Below are positions 1 to 9,988 of a stretch of DNA of 64,000 nucleotides, piece by piece; the stretch's first letter is position 1, and the number at the start of each line of letters is the position of its first letter. The stretch spans positions 13,374 to 77,373 of the forward strand of contig CAWILM010000033.1 in the NCBI GenBank assembly GCA_963836935.1. Reading direction: 5' to 3'. The position numbers and the translations under genes were made by a program. The notes under the pieces were generated by a model. It saw nothing but the letters and a program-made list of their open reading frames with translations, ran no database searches and was not told the origin of the DNA. This DNA is from an uncultured Acidimicrobiaceae bacterium (GTDB lineage Bacteria; Actinomycetota; Acidimicrobiia; Acidimicrobiales; Bog-793).

Positions 1-1785
1 CTGCGCATACGGGTAGTAGCTGCTCGTTGTGTAGGCGTCGACGATCCAGACGAGCTGGCCGTTGTCGATCACCGGATACGGGTTGTCGTCGACAACCAGG
101 AAAGGAGCCACCTTGGCGACGCGGACACGCACGTCCTGGAGGAACATCAGCCGGGAATGCTGCGTGACCAGGTTCGAGATGAGCAGGTTGAGGTCGTGGA
201 ACCTCAGGGCGAAGGCCGCTTTCGTCCAGAACGAGCCGATGGGCACGCCGCCCTTGCCCGAGTAGTGGCTGGAGACCGTGTTGCCGTTGGTGTCCGAGTA
301 GTCGACCTCGCTCTGGGCGGTCTCGGCAACGACGTAGCCGGATTCGCCCAGGCCGAAGTAGACCGCCGGCCGGCTGATCTTCGGCGCGCCATGGTTTGAG
401 ACGGGCGGCACGCCCGCGATGTCGAACACAGGGTTCCCACCGCTTTGCTGGTTGGCCGGCGAGAGCACGGCGCCGTAGCCGTGGGTGTACTGCAGGTGGA
501 TGTTGACCCAGGACGGCGTTGGCAGGTCTGCCGCATTGACCTGGCGCACGCCGATCACGAAGGGGGTAAGCGTCCCGTTGGTCCGGTAACGGTCCAAGGA
601 AAGCCCGGCGATGGTGAAACCGGTCCCGTTCTGCTGGAGCTTCTGGTAGGTCTGAGACGTGATCGACGGCTCCCACAGGGGAAGATTGTCCAACGTCGCC
701 GCCGCGCCCGCGACGACGCCGCCCGTCAGGTTCGAGACGCCCGCGAAGGCGCGTTCGCGGATGGCTGAGAGCCCGAGTGCCTCCCGCGTCGCCTGTATGT
801 TGCGGCTGATGTAGGGGATTTCGAGCTTGCTCTGCGCAGGGGTGACCTTGAGGGCCTGCACAGCCGCCGGCACGATCAGGCCGGCTGCAAGGGCGACGAG
901 TATCCACAGTCCGGCCCCGATGGCGGGAAGCGCCAGGCTGCGTTGGTAGACGTTGAACACCATCAGCACGAAGACCGCGAGAGCCACCACAGCGAGCAGC
1001 TCGATCGCCGGCAGGCGCACGTGCACATCGGTGTAGCCGGCCCCGTTCACGTAGGCGTCCTTCGCCAGGACGAGGTTGAAGCGGTCGACGTAGAAGTAGC
1101 CCGCGGCCCGTACCAGTGCCATCACCCCGAGGATCACCGACATGTGAGCGGTGACGCGCGGGTCCACCCGCGGGGAGGGGCCCTGGAACCGCAGGCCACC
1201 GTTGAGGTAGTGGGCGACACCGGTGAGGATCAGGATCACGAGCAGAGCCACGAGCGTCCAGTCGACAAGAAACGACAGGAAGGGCAGCTTGAACACGTAG
1301 AAACTGACGGACTTGTGGAACTGCGGGTCCGTCACACCGAAGGCCTTGCCGCTGCGGAAAAGCAGCCAGTGCTGCCACTGGTCGCTCGTCGAGGCACCCA
1401 CGATGAGGGCGAAGATCAACGAGACGACCGTGCGCAACGCGAACGTGTGCCTGCCGACGATCTGTTGGTAGCGGCGGACGATCTCGAGCTCGGGCGAGAC
1501 GAGCAGAGCGCGCGGGGCGATGCGGTCGACCACCCAGAGGCTCGCCCAACAAGCGATGAAGAAGGCGCCTATGAACACCGCGGCGATCTCGATCTTGGTC
1601 TCGATCAAGAGGCGCCAGACCGCCGTGAAGCGGACCGAGCGGTACCAGAGGTAGTTCGTGTAGAAGTTGGCGAGTCCCTGGATGACGATCAGCGCGACGA
1701 TGACGAAGACCACGGCGCCAACCACCCAGGCTTGGTACCGCCGGCCCGGGCGCATCCGGGCCGATAAGTCCGTCGGCACTCGCAT
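1..1785 (-). CDS. UPF0182 family integral membrane protein (3' end runs off the window)
   Basis: My own translation of the minus strand: MRVPTDLSARMRPGRRYQAW...NFYTNYLWYRSVRF...KVAPFLVVDDNPYPVIDNGQLVWIVDAYTTSSYYPYAQ, which has typical UPF0182 motifs. It is missing from the ORF track because the stop lies outside the window. Confidence 0.92.
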   Translation of the reverse strand, partial: MRVPTDLSARMRPGRRYQAWVVGAVVFVIVALIVIQGLANFYTNYLWYRSVRFTAVWRLLIETKIEIAAVFIGAFFIACWASLWVVDRIAPRALLVSPELEIVRRYQQIVGRHTFALRTVVSLIFALIVGASTSDQWQHWLLFRSGKAFGVTDPQFHKSVSFYVFKLPFLSFLVDWTLVALLVILILTGVAHYLNGGLRFQGPSPRVDPRVTAHMSVILGVMALVRAAGYFYVDRFNLVLAKDAYVNGAGYTDVHVRLPAIELLAVVALAVFVLMVFNVYQRSLALPAIGAGLWILVALAAGLIVPAAVQALKVTPAQSKLEIPYISRNIQATREALGLSAIRERAFAGVSNLTGGVVAGAAATLDNLPLWEPSITSQTYQKLQQNGTGFTIAGLSLDRYRTNGTLTPFVIGVRQVNAADLPTPSWVNIHLQYTHGYGAVLSPANQQSGGNPVFDIAGVPPVSNHGAPKISRPAVYFGLGESGYVVAETAQSEVDYSDTNGNTVSSHYSGKGGVPIGSFWTKAAFALRFHDLNLLISNLVTQHSRLMFLQDVRVRVAKVAPFLVVDDNPYPVIDNGQLVWIVDAYTTSSYYPYAQ

Positions 1786-1795
1786 CCGCTGGAGC

Positions 1796-3790
1796 CTACG
1801 ACCGAACAGGTACGAGGAGGCAGCGGCAGCCTGGGTGCACCGGTGGGTGCGCGTGCCCGGTCGGGAAGGCGGCGCCCGGTGGCTGCGGGCGGGCGAGGGA
1901 GTTGTCGTCGCAGTCGGGGCACGAACCGCCGGCGTCGTCGTCCTCGACCGCCCAACGAAGCAACGGCACATCCCCGATGCCGAGCGAGGTCAGCACCGCA
2001 AGCTCGCCTGTGGCAAAGGCCCGGGTGGTGAAGTCTCCGGCAAGGCCTTCGACCCGGGATCCCTTCCATTCCCGGTACCCGACGCCTGCCGCGTCCGCCG
2101 AGCCCTCCAGGCTTCCGTCTAGCTCGGACAGCGACTCCTCGATCCTCTTGCGCAGTAGGGTGGAGAGGTCATCGGCGAGCTCGGCCGCGATAAGTGCCCC
2201 GGCTTCGAAGGCAACCGCCGCGCTCGGGGCCGGAGCCGACACACAGGGCCCCGCCACGGCGTCACCGGTCACGAGGAAGGCGGCGCCCGCCTGGTAAGCC
2301 TTGCTGAGTTGGTCACTGGCCGCGGCGACGAATCTCTCGCGCTGGACCGCTGCCGGGATCAGCTCGTCGAGCACGGGCTTGCGCGAGCTTTGGCGCAGGG
2401 CATCGAGGAGGTCGTTCTGGTCGTCCTGGAGGGCGCGCTTGAGCGACCGGCCGAGCTTGGCGGTGATGGATCCGAGAAGGTGGTCACGCCGCGCCAGGGA
2501 CTCGACATCCGGCTCTGTGATGGCGTCGGCCCCGCGTTTCGGCAAGGCCACGTCGGTGACCTCTTGCGCCGCGACGACCGCCGGGGTCTTGGCAAACTCG
2601 GGGGTCTGCTCCGGCGGAGCCGGGGACGGCTCGGCCACCGGGGCGAGCTCACCTGATGGCGGCGAGCTCTCCCCTCCCAGCTCTTCGTCTCCACGAGCCT
2701 CGGGCGGTACCTCGGAGGGATCGACGGCCGCTTCGGTCTGGGCCTCGACAGGCTCGGCAGCGGCCGCAAAGGCAGCCGCCTCCTCCGCGGCCCGGCTGGC
2801 GCGGATGCGGGCGAAGAGCTCGTCGACACTTTGGCGGCTCGCGCCCGACCCGTCACCTTGCCCGGCCCGCCCTGCACCAGTCGGTCCTCCCGCTTCGGCT
2901 TGGCCGGCAGCCGAGGCGGCGCCGGCCGCGCCTTGGGCCTCGCCGTCCCGGCCGAACTCGTTGGCGCCGCCTCCGCGCGTGGCCGCGGCGAGCTCCTCCT
3001 CGAGCTCGGCGAGGTCACCGTGACCCAGCTCGGCTTCGACACGTTCGCCCGCTTGCTCGGCAGCGACGCGCGCTTCGTCCTCGGCGAAAGCCAGGCGCTC
3101 GCGCAGTGCGACAGCTGCGGCCGCGACCGTGTCCACGACGCCGAGCAGCGAGTCCTTCCCGGTGCGAAGCTCCTCGAGCTGCACACGCAGAGCCCGCCGC
3201 CGGGTCACGAGATCGGCGAGCGCGCGGTTGCGCAGAGCACGCGCCTCTGCCACCATGCGCCGGCACTCTTCCTTTGTCGCATCGAAAAGCTCGACGGCCT
3301 CGGCGTGCGCCACCTCTGTCATCGAGTCGGCCTCGGCCTGGGCGCGGCTCAAGTGCTCGCCAGCGTCACGCTGTGCCGCGCCGCGGATCTCCTGTGCCTC
3401 CGCCTCCGCAGCCGCTTGCTTGTCGGCGAGGACCTGCCCGGCTTCGGCGATCAGCTCGGCCGCCCGCTCCTCGGCCTTGGCCACGACCTTGCCGGCCGCG
3501 TCGTGTGCAGTCCACAGGATCTTGGCCGTCTCGATGCCAATTGCCCGCGTGAGCGTCGCCTCGTCCAGGACGGGCTCCTCTACTCGGCGTTCCGCTTCGG
3601 CGACGCGTTCGCGAAGGATTGCCTCGCGCTCGAGCACGCCGCGGAGCTCGGCCGCCACCTTGGCGAGGAACAGTCGGACGGTCTCGCCGTCAACACCCCG
3701 GCGCGCGGAGGGAAAGGACTTGCGTGCGATCTCGTCGGGGCTCAGCGGCGTAGCCGAGGAGATCGAGGTGACATGCGGATCCTGCGACAT
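1796..3790 (-). CDS. DivIVA-domain coiled-coil protein with C-terminal phage MuF/minor-head-like Cys/His domain
   Basis: N-terminal LSPDEIARKSFPSARRGVDGETVRLFL (DivIVA motif), a long Ala/Glu coiled coil, and C-terminal RW...CPDCDDN...FPTGHAHPPVHPGCRC. Start ATG 3790 lies 7 nt after TAGGCT. Confidence 0.85.
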   Translation of the reverse strand: MSQDPHVTSISSATPLSPDEIARKSFPSARRGVDGETVRLFLAKVAAELRGVLEREAILRERVAEAERRVEEPVLDEATLTRAIGIETAKILWTAHDAAGKVVAKAEERAAELIAEAGQVLADKQAAAEAEAQEIRGAAQRDAGEHLSRAQAEADSMTEVAHAEAVELFDATKEECRRMVAEARALRNRALADLVTRRRALRVQLEELRTGKDSLLGVVDTVAAAAVALRERLAFAEDEARVAAEQAGERVEAELGHGDLAELEEELAAATRGGGANEFGRDGEAQGAAGAASAAGQAEAGGPTGAGRAGQGDGSGASRQSVDELFARIRASRAAEEAAAFAAAAEPVEAQTEAAVDPSEVPPEARGDEELGGESSPPSGELAPVAEPSPAPPEQTPEFAKTPAVVAAQEVTDVALPKRGADAITEPDVESLARRDHLLGSITAKLGRSLKRALQDDQNDLLDALRQSSRKPVLDELIPAAVQRERFVAAASDQLSKAYQAGAAFLVTGDAVAGPCVSAPAPSAAVAFEAGALIAAELADDLSTLLRKRIEESLSELDGSLEGSADAAGVGYREWKGSRVEGLAGDFTTRAFATGELAVLTSLGIGDVPLLRWAVEDDDAGGSCPDCDDNSLARPQPPGAAFPTGHAHPPVHPGCRCLLVPVRS

Positions 3791-3813
3791 TGCCAATAGC
3801 CTACGACGCTGGT

Positions 3814-5097
3814 TCACGGAGTGGTGGCCCGTGCGACACGGCCCCCGAGCGACTCCAGAATGTGAACCGCCTCGCCGATCGTGCTCACGGCGTACACCTT
3901 GAGGTGCAGACCGGCGTGTGCCTTGGCGACGGCGTACTCCTGCGAGGGCACAAGGAACACGCTCGCTCCCGCGCCGCGAACCGCGATCGTCTTCTGGGCG
4001 ACCCCACCGACGTCCCCGACGGTCCCGTCAATCGAAATCGTTCCGGTCGCGGCCACCTTCGCTCCACCGGTCAGATTGGCCGGGTCGAGCTCCTGGATGA
4101 GGCCGAGCGTGAAGGCCAAACCGGCCGAAGGCCCGACAATCCCTTCGGAGGACAGGTCCACCTTTACCGGCAAAGGCCCTATCTTGAAGGCGGTTCCGTT
4201 GACCGCAATACCTCCGGAGCCCTGTGGGTAGATACCCATGCAGGAGACGGCATGGGGTTTGCCGCCTTTCTCCGTCACAAGCTCGGCGATCTTGAGCCTG
4301 GTCTCCTCGCCCACGGGCAGGCAGGTGAGCGTCGCCGAGGCACCTGTCCCTTCGACGCGGAACACGCCGAGGCGCAAGGTCACAGTCCGCGGCTTGCCGG
4401 CCGGGTAGGCGCTCACCTGCAGGCGCACTGCCGTGCCCGGAGTAATCGTCGCGAGCCTGTTCTGGAGATTGAGGTAGCTGGAAACCTTGAAACCGTTGAT
4501 CTTGCTGATGACCTGGCCCACCTGCAAAGCCGAGGCGGCGGGTGAGCCGGGCAGGATCCCGTAGATGAGCGCCCCGAGCGCCACGACGGGGACCTTGTAA
4601 CCGAGCTGCTCGAGGGCGACAACCTGGGCGGCCTGCTGCGCGGTCGCCATGTCGATCTCGCCCTCGGTCTGGTACTGGGCCGTGGACTCGCTCCCGAGGA
4701 TCGAGGCGCTTGGATAGATGGTGGCGTTTGGGTCAAGCCAGAAGAACGGGTAGTAGAGCGCCCGCATGGGCGTGAGCTCCACGTAGACGAGGAGCACCGA
4801 GCCGCGGTGGGAGTGCCGGTCGGCTGCGGGCACCTTTATGAGGCTGCTCACCGCGGGCGCCGAGCCGGGTGTGAGGGCGTAGTACGGCAGCTGGATGAAC
4901 CACGCGACGACCGCCGCCACGAGGATGACGGCGAGGATCGCCAACAAGGTGTGGCCGGCGCTCCAGGAGAACTGGTCCCCTCCGCGACGCGCCTTGCTCC
5001 TTGCACCGGTCCCCTCGCCGTAGACCTCCATCGTGTCATCGGGAGCGACAGCCGGCCGTTCGGCCTCTACGCTCGATCCATCGTGGGGTGCATTCAT
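3814..5097 (-). CDS. Membrane-anchored PDZ/Lon-like (S16, YlbL/SdrC-type) protease
   Basis: TM helix, LPYYALTPG, PDZ region, and Ser-Lys dyad motifs GPSAGLAFTL and ATGTI...GDVGGVAQK. Start is approximate within ORF 3814..5916. Confidence 0.9.
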   Translation of the reverse strand: MNAPHDGSSVEAERPAVAPDDTMEVYGEGTGARSKARRGGDQFSWSAGHTLLAILAVILVAAVVAWFIQLPYYALTPGSAPAVSSLIKVPAADRHSHRGSVLLVYVELTPMRALYYPFFWLDPNATIYPSASILGSESTAQYQTEGEIDMATAQQAAQVVALEQLGYKVPVVALGALIYGILPGSPAASALQVGQVISKINGFKVSSYLNLQNRLATITPGTAVRLQVSAYPAGKPRTVTLRLGVFRVEGTGASATLTCLPVGEETRLKIAELVTEKGGKPHAVSCMGIYPQGSGGIAVNGTAFKIGPLPVKVDLSSEGIVGPSAGLAFTLGLIQELDPANLTGGAKVAATGTISIDGTVGDVGGVAQKTIAVRGAGASVFLVPSQEYAVAKAHAGLHLKVYAVSTIGEAVHILESLGGRVARATTP

Positions 5098-5141: not shown

Positions 5142-5766
5142 ATGACGGGACCCGGCGACCAGGCTTCGATAGATGCGGCGCGCCGGCGGGGAGATGCCGC
5201 TCTGGCCGGGCACTTGCGAGACGAGCCGGCAGCCAGGTTTCTACTCGGCGATGCCGATCCCGAAGTGCGCGCGACCGCGCTCGGGGCACTCGTGCGAATG
5301 GGCCGCGCGACGCCGGACGACTCTGCCCGGGTGCTCTCGGACCCCGATGGGAAGGCGCGCCGGCGCTGCCTGTGAGCTGGGCGCCGCCCTCCCGGGTGCG
5401 AACTTCGCAAGACTGCTGGCGGACCCGGACGCGGCGGTGGTCGAATCCGCCTGCTTCGCCGTCGGCGAGGTCGGCGACGTGGAGGCCGTCCCGGCCCTCG
5501 TCGAGATCGCTACGACCCACACCGATCCGCTGTGCCGGGAGTCGGCCGTGGCGGCCCTCGGGGCCATCGGCGACATACGAGGCCTCCCCGCCATCCTGGC
5601 CGCTCTGGAGGACAAGACGCAGATCCGCCGTCGCGCGGTGATCGCGCTCGCCGCGCTCGACAGTCCTGAGGCCGCGGCCGCGCTGCGCCGATGCCTCGGG
5701 GACAGGGACTGGCAGGTTCGTCAAGCTGCCGAGGACTTGCTCGACATCACCACCGGCGGCGACTGA
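5142..5766 (+). CDS. HEAT-repeat protein (frameshift near 5365)
   Basis: Repeats LGDADPEVRATALGAL, DPLCRESAVAALGAIGD and LGDRDWQVRQAA are spread over two frames (ORFs 5001..5375 and 5173..5766). Confidence 0.8.
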
Positions 5767-6749
5767 CCGATTCGGCGCTGTGGCCCAACGTGGCCATGCA
5801 CAAGGCGGCTCCGGCGACGGCACAACGCTCGGGATTCTCGACGAGGTGGACCGGGATGCCGGTCGCGGACGCGAGCCGCTTGCCGAAGCCTGCAAGGAGC
5901 GCACCACCCCCGGCAAGGTAAAGGCCGCGATTCAAAAGGTCGTTCGCAAGATCGGGCGGTGCCGAGGCGATGCACGAGACGGCCGCCTGCACGATCCGGT
6001 CCACGCGGTGGCGCGATCGCGTCTGCTACCTCGGTGCGGGTGATGACCACCGCGCGCACGATGCCGCTGGAGACGTCACGGCCCCGGACCTCGACCTTGT
6101 CGTCCTCCTCCACCCAGGCACTCCCGATGGCGCGCTTGACCGCCTCGGCGGTCTCGAGGTCGATCACGAGCTCGAAGTCGCGCACGCAAAAGCGCTGAAT
6201 GGCCTCGTCGAAGTCTCCCCCGCCAACGGGAACCGAAGCCTGGGTCACGAGACCCCCGAGGGCGAGCACTCCGATCTCGGTCGTACCGGCGCCGACGTCC
6301 ACGACCATTGAGGCGACGGGTTCTTCAATCCTGAGACCGGAGCCGAGGGCCACGGCGACTTGCTGTTCCACAAAGCGGACGTTGCCCGCCCCCGCCTCCT
6401 TGAAGGCACGATCGAGGGCGCGCCGCTGCACACCTGTCGCCGCACCGGACGCGCAGCACAGCACCGTCGGCTGGCTGGCCGACCATGTCCTCACCACGCG
6501 CAGCAGCTCCCTCGCGACTGCCCAGGTGAGATCGAGATCGGCCAGCTGGCCATGGCAGACGGGCCGGATGAACGCCACGTCACCCGCGCAGCGGCCCCGC
6601 AGGCTCAGGGCGCGGTTGCCGAAGGCAACGAGACGATTGCGCCCGAGATCCACGGCTGCGAACGTCGGCTCGTCCACAACGACGCCGCGGCCGCGGACGG
6701 CCACGAGGGTCCGCGCCGTACCGAAGTCGACCGCGAGATCGGCGCCCAC
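5747..6749 (-). CDS. mreB: MreB/Mbl-family actin-like protein, solitary (frameshift near 6005)
   Basis: DFGTART, VVDEP, IRPVCHG, MVVDVGAGTTEI and VPVGGGDFDEAI, then in the second frame PPDLANDLLNRGLYLAGGGALL and ENPERCAVAG. Confidence 0.85.
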
Positions 6750-7231
6750 TACCGGCCGACCTCGGGTGGCTCCTCGATCGGCCGGGCCGCCGGGCTCCAG
6801 TCGGTCCCGCCCTCCCAGGTCTCCCGCTTCCAGATCGGAGTCGTCGCCTTCAAGGTGTCGATTATGTACCGGCAAGCTTCGAAGGCCTCGGCCCGGTGCG
6901 GTGTCGAGACGACCACGACGACGGACGCCTCACCGAGCTCGAGACGACCGACCCTGTGCCATATGGCTGCCCGCCCGATCTCGGGCCAGCGCGCCCGTGC
7001 AGCCGCCACGATCGCCTCGAACCTGGGCAGCACCTGGTCCGCATAGGCCTCGTAGTCGATCGCCCGCACGCCGGTGCGACCTTCGGCGTGATCGCGCACC
7101 GTGCCGACAAAGCACGCCACGGCCCCGGACGACGGCCTCTTGGCCCAGTGAAGGGCGCGCTCGGCCGGGAGGGGCTCGGTGGTGAGCTCGAGCCAGTTGT
7201 CGCCTGTCGCCGCCACGAGCACGTGGGTCAT
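6749..7231 (-). CDS. moaE: Molybdopterin synthase catalytic subunit MoaE
   Basis: GAVACFVGTVRDH, IDYEAY, HRVGRL, STPHRAEAF, LKATTPIWKRE. Confidence 0.95.
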   Translation of the reverse strand: MTHVLVAATGDNWLELTTEPLPAERALHWAKRPSSGAVACFVGTVRDHAEGRTGVRAIDYEAYADQVLPRFEAIVAAARARWPEIGRAAIWHRVGRLELGEASVVVVVSTPHRAEAFEACRYIIDTLKATTPIWKRETWEGGTDWSPAARPIEEPPEVGR

Positions 7232-7315
7232 GGTATGCGACCCGCTGCAGCCGGGCAGCCTCGCGCGAGGTGCCCGACGCCCTATCGGGACCCACCTTCA
7301 GTATCCTCGGTGACC

Positions 7316-8554
7316 GTGGTCGAACCCGGAGACGACTTCGACAACGTAGCCGATGAAGGCCCGTGCGGTCCCCTTCTGCCACCTGACGACCGCCTCTGGC
7401 GACACCCCTCCGAGCTCGGAGAGCACTATCTCCCCATCACCGCGGAGGCGCTCTCGGCGCGTCGCAGCTGGATGGCCTCCACTCCCTCCCGGGCCGGGGC
7501 CTGGTCGGCCGGCATCGTCGGCGCCCTGCTGGCGACAGGTGTTGTGCTCGTCGGCGGCCACCTCACCCACCTGCTCTCGTCGCCCGCGCCGGGCCCTTCC
7601 ACTTCGGCGGTGAGCCACAGCTACAGGAACGCCCAGGTGAGCACGACGATCCTGCCCAGCGTGGGCGTGAGCGTCTCCACGACGACCACGGCCCTGGTGG
7701 GTGTCGAGCCCGGGCTCTACAGGCTGGCGTCACGGGTCGCCACGGCCATGCCTGTCGTCCTCGACGGCGACGTGAGCGGCGTCGGTGTGGTTGTGAGCCC
7801 GAAGGGGTTCGTGCTCGTGCCCGCCTCGCTCGTCAGCGAGACCGACGACATCTCCGTGGTCATCGACGGCCAGCAGCTCGTCGCGACGCTGGTCGGGGTC
7901 GACGCCGGCACCGGGCTTGCCGTCGTGCGCGTGCACGACCCCGACACCCTCACCGCGGCGCGTTTCGTCTCGGGTGCTCAGATGGCATACGGCTCGTTCG
8001 TCGCCGTCGTGTGGGTCGACGCCCACGGGCCCCACACGTGCTGGGGCGCCGTCAACGAGGCCGACGTCCAGCTGGGCTCGGCCGGCGACAGCCCGCCCCT
8101 TCTCGACTCTTTGGTGGCGCTGGACCCGCTCGCCGGGGTCGAGACCGGTGGCGTCGTCCTCGACGGGGCCGGACGCCTCATCGGGATGATCACGAGCGTC
8201 GACAGCCAGACCATGGTGGCGACGCCTGGTTGGCTGGCCGCCATCGTCTCGCAGGACCTCATCACATCCGGGCGGGTCGTGCACGGCTGGCTCGGGATCA
8301 CGGGCCAGACGGCGTCGGTGTCACCCTTCGCTACGGCCGTAGAGGTGATGTCCGTTGCCGCGGGCGGCGCGGCCGCCAAAGCCGGGGTGAGACCAGGCGA
8401 CCTCATAGAGGCCGTGAACTCCGAGCCCGTGAGGACGATGTCGGACATCGTGGCGGCGCTGTACTCCCTCCCACCCCATCAGGCGGTCGTGCTCGACGTG
8501 GTCCGGCGCGGTCACGTCTGGGACGCGCACGCTCGGCTCACAGCAGCCGCCTGA
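7316..8554 (+). CDS. HtrA/S1C-like protein with PDZ domain, catalytic triad degenerate
   Basis: PPDDRLWRHPSE N-terminus, TM helix, trypsin-like fold motifs (GVGVVV, TLVGVD..TGLAVV, GGVVLD..GRLIG) and PDZ (GWLGI...AGVRPGDLI). His, Asp and Ser are not conserved. Confidence 0.8.
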   Translation: MVEPGDDFDNVADEGPCGPLLPPDDRLWRHPSELGEHYLPITAEALSARRSWMASTPSRAGAWSAGIVGALLATGVVLVGGHLTHLLSSPAPGPSTSAVSHSYRNAQVSTTILPSVGVSVSTTTTALVGVEPGLYRLASRVATAMPVVLDGDVSGVGVVVSPKGFVLVPASLVSETDDISVVIDGQQLVATLVGVDAGTGLAVVRVHDPDTLTAARFVSGAQMAYGSFVAVVWVDAHGPHTCWGAVNEADVQLGSAGDSPPLLDSLVALDPLAGVETGGVVLDGAGRLIGMITSVDSQTMVATPGWLAAIVSQDLITSGRVVHGWLGITGQTASVSPFATAVEVMSVAAGGAAAKAGVRPGDLIEAVNSEPVRTMSDIVAALYSLPPHQAVVLDVVRRGHVWDAHARLTAAA

Positions 8555-8620
8555 AGTCCTCCCTGTCCACCCCGGAGGTCCGGACCCTGCCTTGGCGGTC
8601 CGAGCCCTAGCATCGGGCAC

Positions 8621-9988
8621 GTGAGCGATCCTCTCGCACCAGGTGGGGGTGACTTCCTCCGCAACATGCTCGGCGACCTCCTGCGACTCATCAGGACCGA
8701 AGGACCGCTGCAATGGGAGCTCGCCTTTCAACTAGCGGCGAGCGTGGCCGCCGGCGATGAGCCTGACCCCAACCCTGACCCGATCGCCCGCATCCGCCTC
8801 GAGGAGCTGAGCGCGATCGCCGAGCTACACGTGAGCGACGTCACCGGTATGGTCCTCGGGTCCGGCGGCTCGGACCTCAGGCTCGTTCCGACGACGCGCG
8901 TCGATTGGGCCCGGCGGAGCCTCGAGGCCTGGCGGCCGCTGCTCGACCGCCTCGCGGCAGCGTTGACGACCGCGGCCGGAGTCCTCCGGGCCCGGGTTCT
9001 GGCGCAAGGCTCGCCCGGGCCGCTCGGATTCGCCCGGAGCGGGGACGTCGAGCAACCTGCCGGCGGCGAGCCGCCCGCAGCGGGCGGGGACGACGACGAG
9101 CTGCCCCCGGATCCCTTCCTCGGGGACGAAGACCCCCTCAAAGGCGCGGACACCGCCGGCGGTGACGAGGAAGCGGAGGCGGATCTCACCGAGATGATCG
9201 GCCGATGGACCTCGGCGATGGCACCGGCGATGGCGGCGATGCAGGTGGGCTCGGTGGTGGGCCACCTCGCTCGTCGCTCCTTGGGGCAGTACGACTTGCC
9301 TTTGCCGCGCGCCTCCTCGAACGAGATCCTCGTCGTCCTCGGCAACCTGGGACGCGTGGCCGAGGAGTGGAGCCTCCCCGCCGACGACCTGAGATTGTGG
9401 CTGTGCGCGCACGAGATGGCCTTCCACGCGGTGCTCACCCGTCCCCACGTCGCAAAGCGGCTCGAAGATCTCGTCGTTGCTCACGTCCGGCTCGTCCGGC
9501 CCGATCCGCGTGACTTCGAAGGTCTGCTGCAGGGCATCGACCCCGGCTCCATCCCCGGCCTGTCCCAGATCATGGGTGACTCGAGCCTTGCCGGTGACGG
9601 CGACTACGGGCCGTCCCCCGAGCCTCGAGAAGGTCCGCGCCCAGCTCTCCTGTTTGACAGCCGCCATCGCCGGCTACGCCGAGTACGTCACGTCGGTCGT
9701 CGCCTCCCGACTCATCGGGGGCCATGCGCCCATCGGCGAGGCGATGCGGCGACGCCGGGTCGGCCGCGGTGAAGGCGAGCGCGTCGCGGAGTCCTTGTTC
9801 GGCCTGCATCTCGATCAAGAAGACGTCGATCGCGGGGCCGCCTTCGTGGCGGGCGTGCTCGAGCGATCCGGCGGAGCCTCGACCTGGCAAGACTGTGGGT
9901 CGACGAGAAGCACCTGCCGACGCCGGCGGAACTCGCAGCCCCCGGGCTCTGGCTCGCCCGGATAAACCTCGGGGCGGAGGGCGCCTAG
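8621..9988 (+). CDS. Zincin-like zinc-dependent metalloprotease (DUF2342 / Rv3195-like), two frameshifts (near 9620 and 9875)
   Basis: LQWELAFQLA, RVDWARRSL, LGQYDLPLP, RLWLCAHEMAFH, AIAGYAEYV, RRRRV, LFGLHL, RGAAFV and LPTPAELAAPGLWLARI across three frames. Confidence 0.82.

Follow-up and report, generated by a model that had tools for sequence, protein, structure and literature searches.

A DivIVA paralogue with a strongly diverged MuF-like domain, encoded directly upstream of UPF0182 in Acidimicrobiia

We analysed a 64,000-nucleotide stretch of DNA (the window) from an uncultured Acidimicrobiaceae bacterium (assembly GCA_963836935.1, contig CAWILM010000033.1) and within it a gene whose product joins an N-terminal DivIVA domain to a C-terminal domain that, judged from profile alignments and a predicted fold, belongs, though strongly diverged, to the zinc-type branch of the phage head protein superfamily MuF. 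The comparisons indicate that the gene is chromosomal, single-copy, vertically inherited and under purifying selection. It is the middle member of a tight same-strand trio comprising a PDZ-Lon protease-like gene, the DivIVA-MuF gene and a gene for the membrane protein UPF0182. Its invariant place directly upstream of UPF0182 is the strongest clue to its function, and was missed by an earlier interpretation made from the DNA letters alone (the sequence-only reading); because the gene always sits just before a membrane protein gene, the arrangement suggests that a viral part has been taken over for a cell-envelope job. Each half of the protein belongs to a known superfamily; the combination, its chromosomal fixation and its link to UPF0182 were not found in the literature searched or in the annotations returned.

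The two halves belong to a single gene. All strings quoted in the sequence-only reading are present in the translation, including SPDEIARKSFPSARRGVD, REWKGSRVEGLAGDFTTRAFATG and the C-terminal tail, RW-x9-CPDC followed by HAHPPVHPGCRC, which has the spacing CPDC-x24-HPGCRC and is followed after seven residues by the stop. Both ends are carried by 190 of the 262 homologues stored (61 have the C end only, eight the N end only and three neither), and most C-only homologues begin, from their first residues on, with sequence that aligns further upstream in the query, as would be expected of truncated calls. Of the related loci, 73 have 2.2 kb or more of DNA upstream, and in all of them the DivIVA part is found upstream, on the same strand. 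Between 1700 and 3900 the window is covered by contigs from DNA runs. One of these, from run X1, reaches from 1700 to 3779, and its only listed insertion or deletion is a 3-nt in-frame deletion at 2920; we give it little weight beside the comparative evidence since X1 may be the window's own sample. On these three lines we rejected a frameshift or assembly artefact, the joining of two genes that had been named as the way in which the fusion might prove spurious. Close relatives in three DNA runs show the 3-nt in-frame deletion at 2920, within the Gly/Ala-rich linker, consistent with a linker whose length is unconstrained. RNA contigs were present in run X9 over 1700-1930, 1907-2165 and 2312-2479; X9 held only 0.14 of the sampled words and DNA is possible in an RNA library, and these contigs are at most a weak hint of transcription, nor is any conclusion drawn from those parts of the stretch where X9 had no RNA contig.

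A Pfam scan bore out the N-terminal DivIVA domain, with a PF05103 match well above its cut-off (Table 1). This domain scored 44.6 bits in a six-frame search of the source genome, which is 76% complete, and a second DivIVA gene with a higher score (82.7 bits; contig C22, open frame of 303 aa) lies elsewhere in that genome, for which reason we regard the gene studied here as a DivIVA paralogue. It is not the canonical DivIVA/Wag31, scoring 30.1 bits against the cut-off of 260 of the Wag31/DivIVA equivalog model NF050102. The remaining domain map was drawn from the conservation profile of 70 full-length representatives. Up to about residue 269 the composition of the middle region (A 22%, E 15%, R 12%, L 10%, P 1%) favours helix. 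Within the otherwise variable linker that follows, the LFARIRA motif VDELFARIRASRAAE reaches a mean identity of 0.64 against 0.1-0.2 in its flanks, and its pattern hydrophobic-x-x-[LF]-F-A-R-[IL]-R is kept across classes; it may be a separate partner- or membrane-binding helix. In the C-terminal tail, H, G, C, R and C of HPGCRC are invariant in 68/68 rows and the P after H is variable.

The relationship of the C-terminal domain to MuF proteins rests on profile and structure comparisons. Sequence searches of Pfam, NCBIfam and the PDB gave nothing above threshold for this domain, and all that a PDB profile search produced, a helix of ribosomal uS19 aligned over 36 residues with E 0.008, is at chance level. 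Among PHROGs, the 234-aa C-terminal piece matched phrog_2662 (E 9e-7; residues 104-232 against profile positions 575-708 of 717), with eight weaker matches, several of them to the tail only, annotated as 'head morphogenesis', 'minor head', 'head maturation protease' and, in one case, of unknown function. The matched stretch of phrog_2662 is a MuF module, because the same stretch is matched by L115, a bona fide MuF encoded right after a portal gene (phrog_113, E 4.8e-91). In a tblastn search of 50,697 phage records there were 37 matches, all of them weak: the best had E 3e-3, and 80% query coverage was reached by none. Most fall under genes annotated as MuF, minor capsid, head morphogenesis or portal(-MuF). 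A 17-row family profile aligned to gp13 of Haloarcula tailed virus 3 (HATV-3) with an hhalign probability of 95.2% (E 2.8e-8, template residues 210-347), coinciding with the PF04233 match of gp13 itself (217-341, E 5.6e-19). With a 145-row profile, eight of 11 MuF-type open reading frames (ORFs) aligned at 95.0-96.9%, five of the eight carrying PF04233 above cut-off and the three misses being SPP1 gp7, L111 and L112, although most of these ORFs, one of which (L121) was reached via gp13, had been chosen through weak similarity to the family and are not an independent sample. The alignments to HATV-3 gp13, L117 and L119 span 112-124 columns, well beyond the tail motif. Two of six other-lineage orthologues scanned (L098 and L105) match both DivIVA and PF04233, the latter over profile positions 3-112 of 112 with E ~1e-3 and a score of 20 bits, below the gathering threshold of 29.6. 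Finally, residues 419-658 of the ESM Atlas model of a 77% identical homologue (P0010; whole-protein pLDDT a modest 0.62) matched a 'phage minor head protein' cluster, 80% of it PF04233, with a row value of TM 0.68 over 234 residues, and aligned more weakly to portal+MuF clusters.

The genomic setting is strongly conserved. UPF0182 lies downstream on the same strand in 80/80 related loci, with a projected gap of 29-209 nt (median 43 nt; at most 200 nt in 79/80), and is the next gene in 15/15 loci from other orders and classes. Where 4.5 kb or more of upstream DNA was available (69 loci), the PDZ-Lon gene is upstream in 68, in 59 of them within 400 nt, and an MreB-like gene is on the same strand in 60/69. 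Pfam assigned the neighbours to UPF0182, Lon_C (with PDZ), MreB, MoaE, Trypsin_2 plus PDZ, and Zincin_2, in keeping with the housekeeping, non-phage context noted before. The homologues of UPF0182, PDZ-Lon and Zincin_2 in Mycobacterium tuberculosis (Rv3193c-Rv3195) are neighbours and are not known to have a DivIVA gene between them.

Of 8000 candidates scored against the whole protein, 613 are homologues at E<=1e-3. Lengths range from 380 to 900 aa in the 120 listed, which, if they carry a name, are called DivIVA domain-containing, septum initiation protein DivIVA, DivIVA protein or hypothetical; PF04233 is given for none of these 120. The C-terminal domain alone matched 1689 clusters at 50% identity, 1155 of them with E<=1e-10. 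By single-protein search the gene was found in 36 of the 41 genomes of the order (G000 included) and in 23 of the 25 high-quality ones; the same architecture and synteny, for which the sequence-only reading proposed a survey, recur across Acidimicrobiia. Profile A2 (E<=1e-5) matched 46/401 genomes drawn evenly from the phylum; counted from rows and family tallies, these are 23/23 in the same order, 6/9 in the same class and 16/368 elsewhere, one of these an unpublished genome (G185). Relatives are encoded at 424 loci in 185,579 species genomes (one genome per species). The best 80 of the 424 are labelled Acidimicrobiales, Acidimicrobiaceae or generic Actinomycetes/Actinomycetota metagenome-assembled genomes, with one exception labelled Solirubrobacteraceae. 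This locus (L029) is a 2.1-kb contig encoding a domain 77% identical to the window's C-domain; other copies outside Acidimicrobiia have at most 36% identity (tblastn), and L029 was probably mis-binned. Genome G302, of another class, has a member that is identical to a protein labelled Nitriliruptorales and whose relatives are labelled Egibacteraceae and Euzebyales; 28 of 104 genomes of that class match, including the unpublished G467. Most genomes holding the gene have a single copy. In G430, of the same order, two separate contigs each carry a full-length match (E 2.5e-63 and 5.8e-63); either the gene is duplicated or the bin is mixed. In another class (G043), locus L104 has tandem paralogues upstream of UPF0182, at 6980-8386 (-) and 8328-9671 (-), with a MuF-like C-terminus and no Pfam DivIVA match.

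Conservation was also evident at the codon level. Nei-Gojobori dN/dS of the C-domain was 0.07-0.18 for 16 of 17 close relatives, the value for the remaining one (L030, 0.35) being unreliable since it was computed ungapped across an indel; it is still counted in the summary of 139 pairs (dS 0.05-1.5), for which the median was 0.13 and the range 0.04-0.42. The gene is under purifying selection. Identity to the window in the C-domain and in UPF0182 correlated closely (r 0.975, n=80 loci), which shows joint divergence of the two genes only, because the loci are kin and not independent.

The genomes without a full-length match are of several kinds. At the same locus G037 (L125, 325 aa) and G027 (L126, 362 aa) have short DivIVA paralogues that end just past the LFARIRA motif and lack the MuF-like domain, and in G087 (L129) a protein of 542 aa stops ahead of the zinc tail. 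From these forms it follows that the DivIVA paralogue is more general at the locus than the MuF-like domain, which appears to have been lost or cut in some lineages. In G158 and G197 the forms are full-length but more diverged, and escaped the profile; upstream of UPF0182 in G201 there is no such gene, the contig of G026 ends at UPF0182, and in G020 (74% complete) and G034 (97% complete) UPF0182 was likewise not found with this query. The LFARIRA motif is the final conserved element in the short forms (L125 274-1251 (-), L126 3294-4382 (+)), and L125, L126 and L129 offer possible natural controls for what the MuF-like domain does.

DivIVA domains bind membrane at negatively curved sites and recruit partners, and smaller DivIVA-domain proteins such as GpsB and SepIVA act as adaptors. 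We tentatively favour, at a little under even confidence, a role for the protein as a membrane-anchored DivIVA-MuF scaffold that acts as an adaptor for a UPF0182/protease envelope module. The DivIVA domain and the helical region would oligomerise and bind the cytoplasmic membrane, at poles or septa if the family pattern holds. The flexible linker of ~180 aa would provide a second contact through its short LFARIRA helix, and the host partner onto which the MuF-like domain would dock is most likely UPF0182, at its cytoplasmic face, or failing that the neighbouring PDZ-Lon protease. In this way the protein might regulate an envelope quality-control module or position it at particular places on the membrane. 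Docking onto one of these two is proposed because SPP1 gp7 is targeted to the procapsid through strong binding to the portal oligomer (PMC6316719), because MuF is treated as a virion-anchoring module to which other domains are fused (Iyer et al. 2017, PMC5512222), and because UPF0182 is described in a preprint as a predicted tetramer with seven transmembrane helices and a periplasmic dome (bioRxiv 10.1101/2025.11.14.688347). The same preprint reports that UPF0182 correlates phenotypically with FtsH and YccA in three actinobacteria, and proposes for it a role in FtsH-linked membrane-protein quality control.

A more specific version of this proposal, which we consider unlikely in its entirety, runs as follows: an ancestor of the Acidimicrobiia and Nitriliruptoria-labelled lineages captured a portal-docking phage minor head protein and fused it to a DivIVA paralogue, and the MuF module now ties a curvature-sensing scaffold to the cytoplasmic side of the UPF0182 dome, so placing FtsH-linked quality control at poles or septa. 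Under either version the MuF-like domain would most likely go back to a single capture from a phage of some early actinobacterial lineage, with later loss or truncation in a few lineages that keep the DivIVA part in place.

Several observations weigh against the adaptor proposal and the homology on which it builds. Adjacency to UPF0182 is linkage, not contact, and binding to UPF0182, localisation to the membrane or pole, and zinc binding are predictions. The large families f31 (0/27), f41 (0/33), f43 (0/30) and f44 (0/24) of the phylum sample had no match, and the classes in which UPF0182 was studied lack the gene; the short forms in G037 and G027 and the truncated one in G087 further mean that the MuF-like domain is dispensable there. 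For the domain itself, the Pfam scan gave no PF04233 match at E<=1 in the window protein, the PF04233 model matched nothing in the whole genome at E<=10, and TIGR01641 (phageSPP1_gp7) matched only the last 19 residues (14.2 bits against a cut-off of 39.65); by Pfam's own threshold the domain lies outside PF04233. Alignment to SPP1 gp7 failed (hhalign 0.8-1.0%), as did alignment to two SPP1-like prophage MuFs (L111 and L112). The failed gp7 alignment led us to reject a 'gp7-like' identity; the gp7 sequence also lacks CxxC. The sequence-only reading had called W...CxxC...PP.HP.CRC the hallmark of MuF/SPP1-gp7-type proteins; this proved inexact, the tail being a feature of a zinc-type MuF subgroup. 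Its broader claim of a MuF-like domain stands, for a diverged MuF relative is supported by PHROGs, hhalign and the Atlas model, while the expected PF04233 match in the window protein and the gp7 alignment did not materialise. A complex prediction between the transmembrane region of UPF0182 (380 aa) and the C-domain (234 aa) gave no answer (score 0.00 against a mark of 0.32, with no controls folded) and is neutral on binding.

The sequence-only reading had itself offered chromosome tethering at the pole. In the broader form of that idea, a zinc-binding MuF-like domain would bind DNA and the DivIVA part would anchor the chromosome or other DNA at the pole or septum. The Cys/His motif is indeed invariant, and DivIVA proteins tether chromosome-binding partners in other bacteria. 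The title of Stiege et al. 2003 describes SPP1 gp7 as DNA-binding, although the present family does not align with gp7. No nucleic-acid-binding family was matched in Pfam or NCBIfam, the neighbours are envelope and protease genes with no partition or replication gene among those scanned with Pfam, and the link to UPF0182 is invariant. We therefore consider a DNA tether distinctly improbable, and the chromosome-tethering claim in particular is not borne out.

A second alternative concerns origin: the C-terminal domain might be an old cellular one, from which, or from a common ancestor with which, the phage MuFs derive. The host family is old, is found in several classes and is very diverged from phage MuFs. 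Set against this, the family occurs in only 46/401 sampled genomes of one phylum, whereas in Jamet et al. 2017 (PMC5576092) MuF is reported in 35% of tailed phages, with 96% of chromosomal muf genes in prophages or their remnants. Phage ORFs with near-identical tail motifs are moreover located in head modules. Among 2.9 million viral contigs seven loci matched, all limited to residues 183-232 of the 234-aa query, with no full-length copy; these loci (L113-L119) have FPTGH..PPAHP.CRC in common, and L118 carries W..DDD..CPDCDDN. The two that we inspected are genuine head-module genes, L115 following a portal gene and L118 being followed by a protease and a major head protein. PF04233 was found in 2/201 sampled genomes of the phylum at E<=1e-6. 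A cellular origin is accordingly no less improbable in our judgement than a DNA tether, and the capture from phage to host put forward in the sequence-only reading is plausible, given the motif matches in phage head modules and the prophage linkage reported by Jamet et al.; its direction is inferred. A resident prophage gene was rejected on the UPF0182 adjacency in 80/80 and 15/15 loci and on the viral contigs, which give tail-motif matches only, and the homologues are not restricted to prophages, their loci being chromosomal.

Thirdly, there might be no homology at all, a short convergent zinc-ribbon motif (CxxC...HPxCRC) being the only thing in common with MuF. Several database matches are confined to the last 20-45 residues and Pfam's own model fails, but the hhalign coverage in HATV-3 gp13, L117 and L119, the near-complete PF04233 alignment in the two orthologues and the structural match over the length of the domain all extend far beyond such a motif, and make convergence very improbable. 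Least probable of all is the anti-phage decoy or sensor also suggested in the sequence-only reading, in which a polar portal-binding module would trap or sense incoming or assembling phage: the domain is phage-derived and MuF binds the portal in SPP1 (PMC6316719), but PADLOC-DB 2.0 gave 0 families for the protein and its two neighbours at E<=0.01, and the gene is single-copy in most holders, has a dN/dS of ~0.13, keeps a fixed synteny across classes and diverges in step with a housekeeping neighbour, where defence genes are typically patchy, mobile and fast-evolving.

It is rare for phage structural proteins to be put to work in host cell biology. MuF counts as a phage marker, and here a MuF-like domain is fixed and under selection within a DivIVA paralogue throughout an actinobacterial class, in hosts that are widespread in soil, peat and water; both Pfam and NCBIfam miss the domain. 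In these lineages MuF matches are unsafe as blind prophage markers. UPF0182 is universal in Actinobacteria, and the invariant pairing offers a concrete partner hypothesis. If the more specific version of the adaptor proposal is true, a phage structural protein would have become a permanent host part, and UPF0182 would have a first named cytoplasmic partner. No paper on a host DivIVA-MuF fusion was found by title or abstract start in the library searched, which is partial. How novel the architecture is could depend on the ~4% of muf genes that Jamet et al. place outside prophages, and parts of these proteins may already be covered by a newer Pfam release: family PF28068.1 is listed beside DivIVA in the precomputed annotation of four remote relatives (P0347, P0353, P0354 and P0355).

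Features of the gene and of its immediate neighbours are collected in Table 1.

Table 1. Positions in the window of the DivIVA-MuF gene, its parts and the two adjoining genes
Feature	Position	Strand	Basis or remark
Whole ORF including stop	1796..3817	(-)	673 aa from GTG 3817
Alternative start (M10)	ATG 3790	(-)	664-aa form is protein database entry P0002
DivIVA domain, residues 25-145	3383..3745	(-)	Pfam PF05103, E 6.3e-11, 42.8 bits, cut-off 28
Second conserved helical segment, residues 166-255	3053..3322	(-)	Ala/Glu/Arg/Leu-rich; coiled coil presumed from composition
Variable Gly/Ala-rich linker, residues 256-330	2828..3052	(-)	Conservation profile and composition
Conserved motif VDELFARIRASRAAE, residues 331-345 (15 aa)	2783..2827	(-)	Conservation island within linker
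Variable Pro/Glu/Ala-rich linker, residues 346-435	2513..2782	(-)	Conservation profile and composition
Conserved C-terminal domain, residues 436-673 (238 aa)	1799..2512	(-)	Predicted MuF-like over full length in Atlas model of 77% homologue
Core alignable to Phage_Mu_F region of bona fide MuF, residues 547-673	1799..2179	(-)	hhalign 95-97%; phrog_2662 E 9e-7
CPDC (C633, C636), first half of presumed zinc site	1910..1921	(-)	C, D, C invariant in 68/68 rows
HPGCRC (H661, C664, C666), second half of presumed zinc site	1820..1837	(-)	
UPF0182 membrane protein gene, downstream	1..1785	(-)	Pfam PF03699, E 2e-167; N-terminal 588+ aa, runs off window
PDZ + Lon_C (S16-type) protease-like gene, upstream	3814..4950	(-)	Lon_C 1.1e-6; true start beyond 4950

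The two candidate starts of UPF0182, ATG 1785 and ATG 1755, lie 10 and 40 nt past the stop codon TAG (1798-1796). The candidate GTG start and the TGA stop of the PDZ-Lon gene before it overlap as GTGA (3814-3817), as is typical of translational coupling. PDZ models matched that upstream gene with E 6.5e-6 to 1e-4, each just below the Pfam cut-off. The trio is part of a wider cluster, Zincin_2 / Trypsin_2-PDZ / MoaE / MreB / PDZ-Lon / DivIVA-MuF / UPF0182 (window 5721-9772 and related loci), whose order and strand are kept in most of the 80 loci and which unites three protease-like genes with two cytoskeleton-type genes. In the window the MreB-like gene (5724-6929 (-), MreB_Mbl 2.9e-66) is frameshifted near 6010, after ...TEVADAIAP, its C-terminal part being in another frame (ORF 5747-6004); the gene is intact in 6/6 related loci checked, and the frameshift is either an assembly error or a recent pseudogene.

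Among known systems, DivIVA/Wag31 (PF05103) has the same N-terminal DivIVA domain followed by a long helical region. The protein described here adds to this the disordered linker of ~180 aa and the MuF-like domain of 238 aa, a combination not known from any of the named DivIVA proteins, and its gene sits between PDZ-Lon and UPF0182. In the MuF polymorphic toxins MuF is likewise one module of a multidomain protein. There, according to Jamet et al. 2017 (PMC5576092), MuF is N-terminal to a C-terminal toxin and prophage-encoded, whereas here the MuF-like part is C-terminal, only seven residues follow the CRC motif, and the gene is not in a prophage. With SPP1 gp7, which together with Mu gpF is a studied MuF prototype, the family has the terminal C-R-C in common, and by transitivity the Pfam superfamily, but CxxC is absent from gp7 and an alignment is undetectable.

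The closest resemblance is to the zinc-type MuF proteins (HATV-3 gp13, Arthrobacter phage Edmundo gp17 and the IMG/VR ORFs L113-L119). The family differs from them in its N-terminal DivIVA fusion, in scores under the Pfam and TIGRFAM thresholds, in having AGD where they have the hallmark ARTE, and in its first 100 residues (LKRALQDDQN...), which have no sequence match in phage MuFs; its gene adjoins portal or terminase genes in 0/95 loci. The likeness consists of profile homology at 95-97% over up to 124 columns and of a common R-x-E helix, W, CxxC and PPxHPxCRC tail, to which L118 adds the W-x-x-[DE]-D-D...CPDCDDN found in the family here, and in the Atlas model the domain has the size of a whole short MuF protein.

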